From a virus (taxonomy: Duplodnaviria; Heunggongvirae; Uroviricota; Caudoviricetes): 64,000 nucleotides of DNA. A model generated the notes under the pieces. The model searched no databases. It was not told where the DNA came from and worked only from the letters and a program-made list of their open reading frames with translations. The DNA lies in the IMG/VR virus record IMGVR_UViG_3300028549_001428; one strand, given 5' to 3'. How positions within the stretch are numbered: the stretch's first letter is position 1; every line of letters begins with the position of its first letter. The translations under genes were made by a program, and so were the position numbers. Shown here piece by piece: positions 354-54,130 of the stretch.

Positions 354-365
354 ATTCTCTCCTAG

Positions 366-451
366 TGCGGATAAAGGGGTTCGAACCCTTGACGTGTATT
401 GCTACAAAAGGATTTAGAGTCCTCCGCTTTCGACCACTCAGCCATATCCGC
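366..451 (-). tRNA. Amber suppressor tRNA, anticodon CUA, long variable arm (Leu/Tyr-like body)
   Basis: Cloverleaf: acceptor GCGGATA/TATCCGC, discriminator A, D arm with GG, anticodon arm GAGGA-CT[CTA]AA-TCCTT (anticodon 415-417), variable stem TGTA-GCAA-TACA, T arm AAGGG-TTCGAAC-CCCTT; followed by CTA rather than an encoded CCA. Confidence 0.93.
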
Positions 452-478
452 AAAAAATGAGCCATTTCTGACTCATTT
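452..478 (-). terminator. Intrinsic terminator after the 1496->492 transcription unit
   Basis: AAATGAGTCA-GAAA-TGGCTCATTT hairpin with U-tract on the minus strand. Confidence 0.7.
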
Positions 479-480
479 GT

Positions 481-509
481 AATATAGTAAATTAATCTCT
501 TAGTGTCAA
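481..509 (-). promoter_or_regulatory. sigma70-type promoter for the suppressor tRNA
   Basis: TTGACA (509-504) N17 TATATT (486-481). Confidence 0.8.
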
Positions 510-773
510 TCGAATTTGTGATGATAGGTCTTTTACAACTTTACCAATGATTTCATCATTGAATGACTTGGAGTTCCAAGTATTTCCTTTGATAACATCA
601 TCAATTCGTTTGATAATCAACTGATCAATTCGATCTGCATAATTATATTCAGCAAGTGCCTTTTTAGCCTGTTGTGTAACAGATTCAACTACCCACATCT
701 GAATATCATCCTTGGTAATTCCAAGTTCATTATACATATAATTCTTAAACATAACCCATTTGCTATTATCCAT
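492..773 (-). CDS. Hypothetical protein (likely start MDNSKW)
   Basis: ORF track 492..812; ATG at 773 has a GAGAGG SD and overlaps the upstream stop. Confidence 0.7.
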   Translation of the reverse strand: MDNSKWVMFKNYMYNELGITKDDIQMWVVESVTQQAKKALAEYNYADRIDQLIIKRIDDVIKGNTWNSKSFNDEIIGKVVKDLSSQIRLTLRD

Positions 774-957
774 TGTTAGCCTCTCTATATTCAAGTTCAT
801 TAATAAATTCATCTACAAAGGTGTTAATGATATCATTATTTAGCGATGAATATATACTAGGACAGCATCCATGTCTACAGCCATCATCATATTGATAATA
901 CCATGCCTCTTCGTTTAATTTATTAATTAAAAGTTCCTTCAATAATGCCTTATCCAT
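766..957 (-). CDS. Small hypothetical protein with GCRHGCC motif
   Basis: ORF with strong AAGGAGG SD (964-970) overlapping the upstream stop. Confidence 0.7.
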   Translation of the reverse strand: MDKALLKELLINKLNEEAWYYQYDDGCRHGCCPSIYSSLNNDIINTFVDEFINELEYREANNG

Positions 958-969
958 GACAGACCTCCT

Positions 970-1389
970 TTATCTTATTGAGGATGCCAGTGATAAATCC
1001 ATTTTTTCATTGAAATCAATAGAATTCATTATTTCAGCGGAATCAATATACAAGGAAATCATACCCTTTAACTTATCCACATTCAAAGCCTTTTCAGTCT
1101 TTTCAGTCTTTTCAATTTCGGATAATTTGTTTCCCTTCAATAATGAATAGGCTACGTGCATATGTCTAGCATATGATTTAACGAAATACATAGCATATTG
1201 AGGATATGCAACATTTATGTTTAATGTTGTTGATATGGCTTTATATTTAGCCAATACAGCTTCTACTGCTGTTGTCGTGTCAGTTCTCTGTCATTCTTTG
1301 AATGCGTGTTTATACTGACGGGTGAATTCAGAAACCAACTTGATGTCAGCTTTGAATTTAGATAATGCGATTTTTAATTCATTGTTCAT
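970..1389 (-). CDS. Hypothetical phage protein (139 aa if read through; RHMHVAYSLLKG motif) with in-frame UGA at codon 33
   Basis: ATG 1389 with AAGGAG SD (1397-1402); reads MNNELKIALSKFKADIKLVSEFTRQYKHAFKE*QRTDTTTAVEAVLAKYK...; TGA at 1291-1293; the ORF track recovers only the downstream part from a TTG. Confidence 0.75.
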
Positions 1390-1396
1390 AATAATA

Positions 1397-1472
1397 CTCC
1401 TTAAATTTGTGAACTTTGTTTGTTTTGTTTTTATCGTTACAGTACAGCCGAAAACAAACCAAATTAAGGAGG
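1397..1472 (-). promoter_or_regulatory. SD-sequestering hairpin (translational attenuator)
   Basis: mRNA CUCCUUAAUUUG pairs with CAAAUUUAAGGAG, which contains the SD; inner GUUUGUUUU/AAAACAAAC pairing extends the stem. Confidence 0.75.
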
Positions 1473-1496
1473 GCGGTTGTTAAATACCTACATCAT
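1464..1496 (-). CDS. Leader peptide ORF M-M-(UAG)-V-F-N-N-R-P-P-UAA
   Basis: AAGGA SD at 1503-1507, then ATG ATG TAG GTA TTT AAC AAC CGC CCT CCT TAA; the Pro-Pro-stop codons form the anti-SD arm. Confidence 0.65.
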
Positions 1497-1535
1497 GGTA
1501 TATCCTTTTATTAAAATTATTTTCTTCATATTGGT

Positions 1536-1564
1536 AATATAGATTATTATCGCTTTCTTGTCAA
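1536..1564 (-). promoter_or_regulatory. sigma70-type promoter for the leader/UGA-gene unit
   Basis: TTGACA (1564-1559) N17 TATATT (1541-1536). Confidence 0.8.
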
Positions 1565-52900: not shown

Positions 52901-54130
52901 GTGAACTACCCATGAGTTAAATGCTCATTAGCTTCTGACTTCATAGATAGTTGCGTATTGCTACGGCTAACACCATCTCCATCAGTGTACTCGCCAGTTC
53001 CTGACGAGAGAAGGCTTACACCTTCTGTTAATATATTTTTAGCAGCATTTACATCTCGATCATGTACAGATCCGCATGATTCACATACCCATTCACGATC
53101 CGACAATTTCATATCAGATTTTATCCAACCACAATCATTACATGTTTTAGAAGATGGAAAGAATCTATTGATTGTTATAATTTGCTTGTCATTCCATTCC
53201 GCTTTATAACGGATCATATTGGCAAACATCCCCCATACACAATCTGATATATGTTTAGCTAACTTATGGTTTTTCACCATACTTTTTACATTTAGATCTT
53301 CCAAGCAAATCAGATCGTATTCTCTGATTAACTTAGTTGAGATTTTATGTAAATTGTCTTTTCGTGAATTTGATATCTTCTCGTGGATACGAGCAACCTT
53401 CAATCTTTGTTTTTCGGATTGATGACTACCGTTAGTCTTACGAGATAGATGTTGTTGTGCTACTTTTAATTCTTTTTCATATTGTTTCGTGTAACGAGGA
53501 TTCTTGAACTTCGTTCCATCACTCGTTATACAAAAATCTTTTATACCTAAATCAATACCAACTGATTTACCTGTATGAGCCATTGGTTCATGTGTAGTTG
53601 CTACTAGTATAGATACAAAATATTGATTCCTAGAATCTCTTGAGAATGTGCATTGGCGAATCTCGCCTTTAAATTCTCGTTGTTTTATTAACTTTATACC
53701 ATCATTAAATTTAGGTACATAAATCTTGTTTGTTTCAACTGTTATATGTTGAGGAACACGAAATGAATTCTTGGATCTTTTAGATTTAAAGTTCGGAAAC
53801 TCAGCGTTTCCACGATAGAAATTCAGATAAGCAGCTTCCAAATTCTTCAGCGTCTGCTGTAATGTCTGGGAATTGATTTCTTTCAGCCAAATCGTACTTT
53901 CGTCTTTCTTCAATTTGGTTAGCTTATTAGCCTGTGCTACATAATTATCAGATTTCTTCGTTTCTCTATATTGATTCTTCCTCTCGTTGAGGAAATAATT
54001 ATACACATAACGAACTGAACCAAAGTGCTTATTCAACAAAATCTTCTGTTGCTCACTTGGTTCTATTCGATACTTATATGATTTCAATATCTCTTTCATC
54101 TATAACATAATATATGTTATTTTTATTCTG
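52901..54130 (-). mobile_element. IS200/IS605-family solo-tnpB element (IS1341-like); left boundary approximate
   Basis: tnpB without tnpA; right end GAAGC...GGGTAGTTCAC at 52901; inserted between divergent late genes. Confidence 0.8.
52906..54099 (-). CDS. tnpB: TnpB RNA-guided endonuclease
   Basis: HTH KSYKYRIEP, RuvC GIDLG / CLEDL / DRDVNAA intact, Zn ribbon CNDC..CESC. Confidence 0.95.
   Translation of the reverse strand: MKEILKSYKYRIEPSEQQKILLNKHFGSVRYVYNYFLNERKNQYRETKKSDNYVAQANKLTKLKKDESTIWLKEINSQTLQQTLKNLEAAYLNFYRGNAEFPNFKSKRSKNSFRVPQHITVETNKIYVPKFNDGIKLIKQREFKGEIRQCTFSRDSRNQYFVSILVATTHEPMAHTGKSVGIDLGIKDFCITSDGTKFKNPRYTKQYEKELKVAQQHLSRKTNGSHQSEKQRLKVARIHEKISNSRKDNLHKISTKLIREYDLICLEDLNVKSMVKNHKLAKHISDCVWGMFANMIRYKAEWNDKQIITINRFFPSSKTCNDCGWIKSDMKLSDREWVCESCGSVHDRDVNAAKNILTEGVSLLSSGTGEYTDGDGVSRSNTQLSMKSEANEHLTHG

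Follow-up and report, generated by a model that had tools for sequence, protein, structure and literature searches.

A probable amber-readthrough-gated translational attenuator with an associated tRNA-CUA gene in phages

Leader peptides can govern translation of the gene that follows them, and translational attenuation of this kind is represented by ermC/ermCL, the cat and cmlA leaders and secM-secA. The RAPP/RAGP arrest peptides (SecM, ApdA, ApdP) arrest elongation at R-A-[PG]-P at the end of a longer exported protein, TnaC ends in Pro-stop, and in prfB, the gene for RF2, a +1 frameshift takes place at an early in-frame UGA inside the regulated gene. In PepNL, according to the available text of PMC11890864, stop-codon readthrough is itself the input, in that host Trp-tRNA reads the terminal UGA and arrest is relieved; for the termination-arrest peptide TnaC the same text points to P24. 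A C-terminal Pro-stop is treated as a selected stalling class in the accessible part of PMC13410324. In phages that keep the standard code, suppressor tRNAs are usually regarded as precursors of recoding or left unexplained in the available portions of 10.1101/2021.08.26.457843 and PMC7326821, the latter listing Sup-CTA without comment, and the PTH2 of jumbo phages has been proposed to act in ribosome rescue (PMC7824862, in the text available).

In this paper we analyse a short leader ORF in the window, that is, the whole 64-kb stretch of DNA under study, which is large-phage DNA with a ligase, DHFR and a sigma-like gene. We propose that this leader, MM*VFNNRPP* (asterisks are stops), belongs to a conserved amber-readthrough-gated translational attenuator that controls the following gene, here called X, and we put the probability of this at about three in four. 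Readthrough and pausing, as we infer them, would act as follows. A ribosome ending at the leader UAG would leave the X Shine-Dalgarno sequence (SD) locked in a predicted hairpin, and one reading through the UAG would reach the Pro-Pro-stop, upon which the SD would open and X would be translated. Decoding of the UAG would probably fall to the CUA tRNA that the phage itself encodes, in competition with host RF1, and the leader would in this way sense how much charged suppressor there is relative to RF1. The open state would probably be prolonged by slow termination at the Pro-Pro-stop, and in most relatives the output would be X together with Pth2.

The features of the locus are collected in Table 1. 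A sequence-only reading of this DNA, which left the strand unstated, had described an AAGGA, a leader with TAG, a Pro-Pro-stop end complementary to the next ribosome binding site, an inner stem and a distance of about 16 nt from amber to stem. All of these are present, on the minus strand: 1471-1460 pairs with 1409-1397, the inner stem is as described, and the amber lies 16 nt from the hairpin stem. That reading missed the CUA tRNA, and the controlled gene is broken in this genome. Within the 64-kb window the leader is the only amber-gated one of its type, and no Pth2 was found there. The same promoter type stands ahead of five other genes or RNAs in the window. A longer, leaderless leader was considered and set aside; it would start from an ATG at 1527-1529, which lies six bases past the -10 box and keeps the reading frame in the window as well as in a related locus, L001 (at about 3863), but the interval 1497-1529 has non-synonymous changes in close relatives and has gained 1 nt in one contig of low depth.

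Table 1. Features of the leader, gene X and tRNA-CUA locus in the window
Feature	Position	Strand	Basis
Promoter of leader transcript, sigma70-type, TTGACA-17-TATATT	1536..1564	-	predicted
SD of leader ORF, AAGGA	1503..1507	-	sequence
Leader ORF MM*VFNNRPP*, 10 codons + stop	1464..1496	-	sequence
Amber gate codon TAG, followed by a purine	1488..1490	-	sequence
Anti-SD arm: Pro-Pro-stop codons and next bases	1460..1471	-	folds; one compensatory pair against L001
Inner stem-loop	1413..1459	-	14 loop nt (1448-1435) identical in L001
Hairpin 3' arm with gene X SD (TAAGGAG, 1403-1397)	1397..1409	-	folding
Gene X, start 1389, broken	970..1389	-	family profile; comparison with relatives
Separate promoter ahead of CUA tRNA	481..509	-	equivalent promoter in L001
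Terminator-like hairpin and U run, directly 5' of CUA tRNA	452..476	-	L001 likewise
tRNA, anticodon CUA, long variable arm, predicted amber suppressor	365..451	-	tRNA prediction

Comparison with relatives shows what is kept. At L001 the X protein is 46% identical, and the upstream DHFR, leader, hairpin and CUA tRNA are all retained; its leader, MM*VYRTRPP*, shares MM*V----RPP-stop with the window and has the SD GGAG at the equivalent position, and sequence comparison finds the -10 hexamer of the leader promoter kept as well. The stop changes from TAA in the window to TGA in L001 and the change is compensated on the opposite hairpin arm, which gives one compensatory pair. Despite the 46% protein identity, the two loci share without a mismatch 14 nt of the loop (1435-1448) and 13 nt of the 3' arm, possibly a binding site or tertiary element. 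In nearer relatives the sole listed change in the leader core, at 1476, is synonymous, and each arm of the inner stem has one extra base, at 1450 and 1427; of these comparisons, one drew on 40 of 173 differences and the other on leader coverage in 2 runs. At locus L007 the X homologue is apparently frameshifted near its start, the gate position holds TGA and the locus contains no tRNA, and we read it as a decayed module. In IMG/VR neither single-protein searches nor exact DNA patterns nor close alignment turned up a close homologue, a looser DNA pattern there gave 3 matches that we read as chance, and GenBank phages gave no match to the window protein or to P0039.

A profile search for X returned 51 proteins, several of them Pth2 fusions, and viral scans gave 16 and 63 loci. 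The 63 loci were combined with the window, L001, L005 and L007 (67 in all), and 7 duplicates were dropped to leave 60 distinct loci. A leader was defined as a start, at most 12 codons and TAG, followed by an end with Pro as the last or last-but-one residue and a stop lying 15-110 nt upstream of X. Such a TAG-gated, Pro-ending leader is present at 49 of the 60 loci, a figure that is not a blind one, as the pattern was set after example loci had been viewed, and for that reason it is the codon-swap, other-gene and in-frame controls that carry weight. When the gate was swapped in the same pattern, TGA was found at 0/60 loci and TAA at 1/60; ahead of the other genes of these loci TAG was found in 6/362 cases, TGA in 6/362 and TAA in 10/362. 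The X loci are related and not independent, the 60 proteins forming 31 clusters at 50% identity, 22 of which include a leader. Within about 3 kb, in the DNA fetched, a CUA tRNA was found at 52/60 loci, once with a four-letter anticodon; it accompanies 47 of the 49 leaders and is missing from the fetched DNA of the other 2, and at 5 loci the tRNA is present where a strict leader is not. At 51/60 loci X adjoins Pth2 or is fused to it.

Ambers also occur outside the strict leader. On inspection, 8 of the 11 loci without one still have an amber, either ahead of X or in its frame, and at L041, L070 and L073 the amber is in frame with X itself and there is no separate leader. Five of the 51 Pth2 genes (L045, L051, L054, L066, L070) have an internal stop, TAG every time, which we read as a putative second amber gate in the operon. 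At some 18 loci (L021, L022, L029, L036, L037, L069, L074 and others) the module follows, often directly, a gene that we take from its motifs to be lysozyme-like.

The grammar of the leader was examined in 47 loci, L044 and L074 having been dropped from the 49 because the wrong leader end had been parsed. A Pro-Pro end is found in 39/47 leaders, with varied codons, and Lys or Arg precedes the Pro end in 38 (K in 26, R in 12). The family motif is thus [KR]-P-P-stop, K being commoner than R, the leaders run to about 7-22 codons, and the likeness to RAPP/RAGP peptides (ApdA/ApdP, SecM) drawn in the sequence-only reading is not apt; R-A-[PG]-P is not the ending of the phage leaders. Exactly two codons precede the first amber in 31/47 leaders, and two ambers stand in series in 9/47. 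Of 56 gate ambers 55 are followed by a purine; among ordinary TAG stops the figure is 27 of 46. Amber suppression is favoured by a purine at +4, according to the available text of PMC6266110. At every one of the 47 loci the last amber is at least 15 nt from the terminal stop.

A search that started from the motif gave a similar picture. The leader-only DNA pattern matched 39 times in a virus scan, 7 of these on contigs already in the 63-locus scan, and all 39 matches were in frame, where 3 of the 7 allowed spacings are in-frame; X, Pth2 or a CUA tRNA lies near 33 of them. Downstream of the leader at L084, L095, L086 and L110 lie basic proteins whose N-terminus gives no match to the X profile, some with Pth2 or a CUA tRNA, and these are possible analogous replacements. 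One of the matches is the cultured Stenotrophomonas phage DLP5, which combines the leader with X and, immediately downstream of X, an annotated tRNA-Sup-CTA; the cultured phages DLP3, DSS3_MAL1 and OLIVR1 have the leader with a CUA or CUA-like tRNA, and in the stretch of phage NCTB examined there was neither leader nor CUA tRNA. A scan of GTDB genomes gave 11 matches, 3 of them out of frame, and the full module only at L128, where the DNA around the leader is identical to a viral locus; the GTDB pattern was narrow, so that scarcity there does not show absence in bacteria. On a contig in a Chloroflexota MAG (L130/L131) a pair of amber-gated KPP leaders is separated by 828 nt; the proteins that follow them are unrelated and belong to no known family, and no CUA tRNA lies within the 4 kb examined. 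One RNA run, metatranscriptome X20, gave no cover of the leader, which is not proof of its absence.

Folding of the window hairpin by itself is unremarkable. The stretch 1380-1530, which the sequence-only reading had proposed to fold, has z 0.04, and the 89-nt stem region has z -1.6, a level reached by 15 of 300 shuffles; by itself the hairpin is not significantly stable, and the evidence beyond chance is comparative. With a ribosome footprint placed at the Pro-Pro-stop, the SD opens in the model, as that reading had expected. In the window the computed cost of opening the SD is 5.7 kcal/mol for a ribosome whose A site holds the amber and 0.6 for one whose A site holds the terminal stop, and in a stepwise model it is down to 0.7 from the fourth codon past the amber, so that, as modelled, stalling would not be strictly needed. 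Over the 47 loci the free RNA has a median opening cost of 6.9 kcal/mol, which becomes 7.6 if a footprint covers the last amber and 1.2 if it covers the terminal stop; control genes have a median of 2.1. The cost is at least 3 kcal/mol in 44/47 loci against 50/150 controls. A footprint at the terminal stop lowers it by more than 1 in 46/47 loci, and a footprint lowers it by more than 3 in 39/47, against 1/150 controls with a mock footprint. Termination at the amber is accordingly predicted to leave the switch off and readthrough to turn it on. The last codons of the leader are predicted to sequester the SD in the window, as had been claimed, but in the family this is the minority arrangement, the anti-SD lying in the Pro codons in 10/47 loci and after the stop in 37/47; the geometry is thus kept with different sequences. 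The modelled switch agrees with what is expected of a leader attenuator: a short ORF with its own ribosome binding site lies upstream, the SD is computed to lie in a hairpin, and the position of the ribosome decides access to it in 46/47 folding models. Gate-codon specificity, footprint folding, the motif-first scan and the co-located CUA tRNA together support the amber-dependent logic first suggested by the sequence-only reading.

The CUA tRNA lies 522 nt after X, is found again in L001, and is 87 nt long, with GG in the D-loop, TTC in the T-loop and A73; by identity rules it would be a Tyr-like suppressor. Its promoter is followed at once by the terminator-like hairpin (window 452-509, minus strand; L001 4638-4694), an arrangement that may limit or uncouple transcription of the tRNA, and a similar hairpin lies at window 30628 (minus strand). 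Apart from the leader, the phage uses the standard code. The stops of 44 long ORFs in the window are 35 TAA, 6 TGA and 3 TAG. Of the properties of code 15, the phage encodes the CUA suppressor tRNA but has no rise in coding density, as reading TAG as sense leaves the coding cover of the 64-kb window without gain (88.6 vs 88.7%). In module-bearing phage DNA 46 of 301 genes end in TAG, and back-up stops after these are no closer than usual (median extension 11.5 codons vs 8.5-9).

Several other explanations have to be weighed against these data. The data on the genetic code bear on the idea that the module is an interlock for a code switch, in which X would disable RF1 and the leader would permit X only once the suppressor works, the resulting global amber readthrough corrupting host genes that end in UAG. 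X and tRNA-CUA do form a minimal core, DLP5, DLP3 and the window being without an adjacent Pth2, two serial ambers would suit a threshold switch, and recoded phages carry 'code change modules' in the available text of 10.1101/2021.08.26.457843; a global recoding switch is nevertheless made less likely by the genes that still end in TAG without closer back-up stops, and coding cover gives it no help, so that we consider the interlock unlikely. ARAGORN labels the window tRNA Pyl, a label that presumably follows from the anticodon alone, and the amber might then be read by tRNA-Pyl, with the gene on only in hosts that make pyrrolysine. A tRNA-Pyl is short, with a tiny variable loop, an extended anticodon stem and no GG in the D-loop, and the window tRNA has neither this length nor this form; moreover, the bodies of the family's CUA tRNAs vary among loci and the cultured carriers infect Stenotrophomonas and Agrobacterium, which makes a pyrrolysine sensor hardly credible.

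The two remaining explanations dispense with readthrough or with the peptide. That two codons so often precede the amber, and that the usual downstream partner is Pth2, would suit a minigene which ends at UAG, as lambda bar does, and reports peptidyl-tRNA drop-off or a shortage of Pth, the codons after the amber being untranslated; bar minigenes load Pth in the accessible text of PMC8012679. Against a minigene, it is the frame after the amber that is conserved (39/39), with Pro-Pro encoded by varied third bases, a footprint at the amber leaves the SD shut in the folding models, and ambers occur inside Pth2 and in frame with X too, so that this explanation is very improbable. We give as little credence to an RNA-level element consisting of an anti-SD hairpin and a protein-binding loop, for instance for autoregulation by X, in which the peptide would be incidental. 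It would account for the coincidence of Pro codons and anti-SD in the window and for the identity of the 14-nt loop in L001, but where the anti-SD lies after the stop Pro-Pro persists all the same, with many codon combinations, the distant leaders inspected show no evident copy of the loop sequence, and among known RNA families, riboswitches and T-boxes included, Rfam gave only tRNA at gathering score, with two sub-threshold matches (E 0.7 and 2.5) that do not rise above noise. An attenuator gated by amber readthrough is the reading that we prefer.

X is a basic, all-helical protein with the family motif R-H-x-H-[IV]-A-Y-x-L-L-[RK]-G, and its predicted structure is all-helical with pLDDT 90. 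Pfam, PHROGs, NCBIfam, ESM Atlas, Foldseek and VIA-align gave only generic helical likeness, so that the single pointer to the function of the output is its association with Pth2; distant X homologues are fused to Pth2 or adjoin it. The label 'putative structural protein' given to the OLIVR1 protein was set aside, the main text of PMC10132094 offering no proteomic basis for it. The X family is unnamed, tied to Pth2 and likely a translation factor. Three lesions break the gene in the window: codon 33 (1293-1291) is TGA, 9 nt are duplicated at 1107-1090, and the reading frame shifts near 1001. The residue at the TGA codon is Trp in 9/9 aligned close homologues; contigs from other runs have TGG at codon 33 and neither the duplication nor the frameshift, and the possible source run is identical to the window over 200-2100. 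Because other runs are intact and the possible source run agrees with the window, the lesions are likely real and strain-specific. A genome-wide reading of TGA as sense was rejected, since coding cover does not rise and relatives have TGG at this codon. In this genome, then, the switch looks intact and its target appears to be a pseudogene.

After X lies a small Cys-containing ORF (766-957, minus strand) that is skipped in contigs of two other runs and has a look-alike in L001. Elsewhere in the window, among structural genes, a 397-aa ORF (52906-54099, minus strand) reads, from its motif, like an IS605/TnpB-type protein.

With respect to function, X, with Pth2 where present, could clear peptidyl-tRNA or stuck ribosomes when amber termination fails or is overridden, an idea to which the Pth2 link is the one pointer and to which we give somewhat less than an even chance. 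A broader proposal, more tentative still, is that leader, X, Pth2 and tRNA-CUA make up an undescribed phage surveillance system for translation termination, in which the tRNA would be a weak rival of RF1, the amber leader, single or double, a ratio switch, and X a new factor that rescues ribosomes or modulates release factors and is produced only if termination at amber codons fails, for instance under a host defence or in co-infection. If true, this would explain why standard-code phages have CUA tRNAs and would represent a first step towards amber recoding.

With this module the CUA tRNAs of standard-code phages gain a concrete, conserved target, and its presence in cultured phages (DLP5, DLP3, DSS3_MAL1, OLIVR1) makes it directly testable. 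No description of the leader or module was found in the literature searched, where supplements and subscription papers may list these genes, nor did we find a leader gated by stop-codon decoding described as a regulatory logic for bacteria or phages. As in ermC and secM, a ribosome at a set position in the leader is predicted to open a hairpin that hides the SD, but the input here would be the decoding of an internal stop, not an antibiotic or pulling force, no arrest motif is shared, and a dedicated tRNA is encoded beside the phage leader. Like PepNL and TnaC, the leader is short and its behaviour at a stop codon would be regulatory; unlike in PepNL, it is an internal UAG that would serve as the gate, the phage encodes a tRNA cognate to it, and readthrough would be needed to reach the acting site. 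As in prfB, an early in-frame stop would gauge the strength of a release factor by competition, whereas here the UAG would be decoded as sense in a separate leader and act via an SD hairpin. Pth2 occurs in large phages, as does the jumbo-phage PTH2 of PMC7824862, the main text of which, as available, speaks neither of a leader nor of a partner protein or suppressor tRNA (with 0 occurrences of 'suppress'). With recoded phages, in the available text of 10.1101/2021.08.26.457843 and PMC13037316, the module shares a phage CUA tRNA and the proposal of amber as a regulatory gate; unlike in those phages, TAG is still a normal stop, and the only ambers that would be decoded lie in the leader and, at some loci, in Pth2 or X. 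Leader-controlled attenuation is itself of a known kind, and it is the stop-codon gate that would set this module apart.
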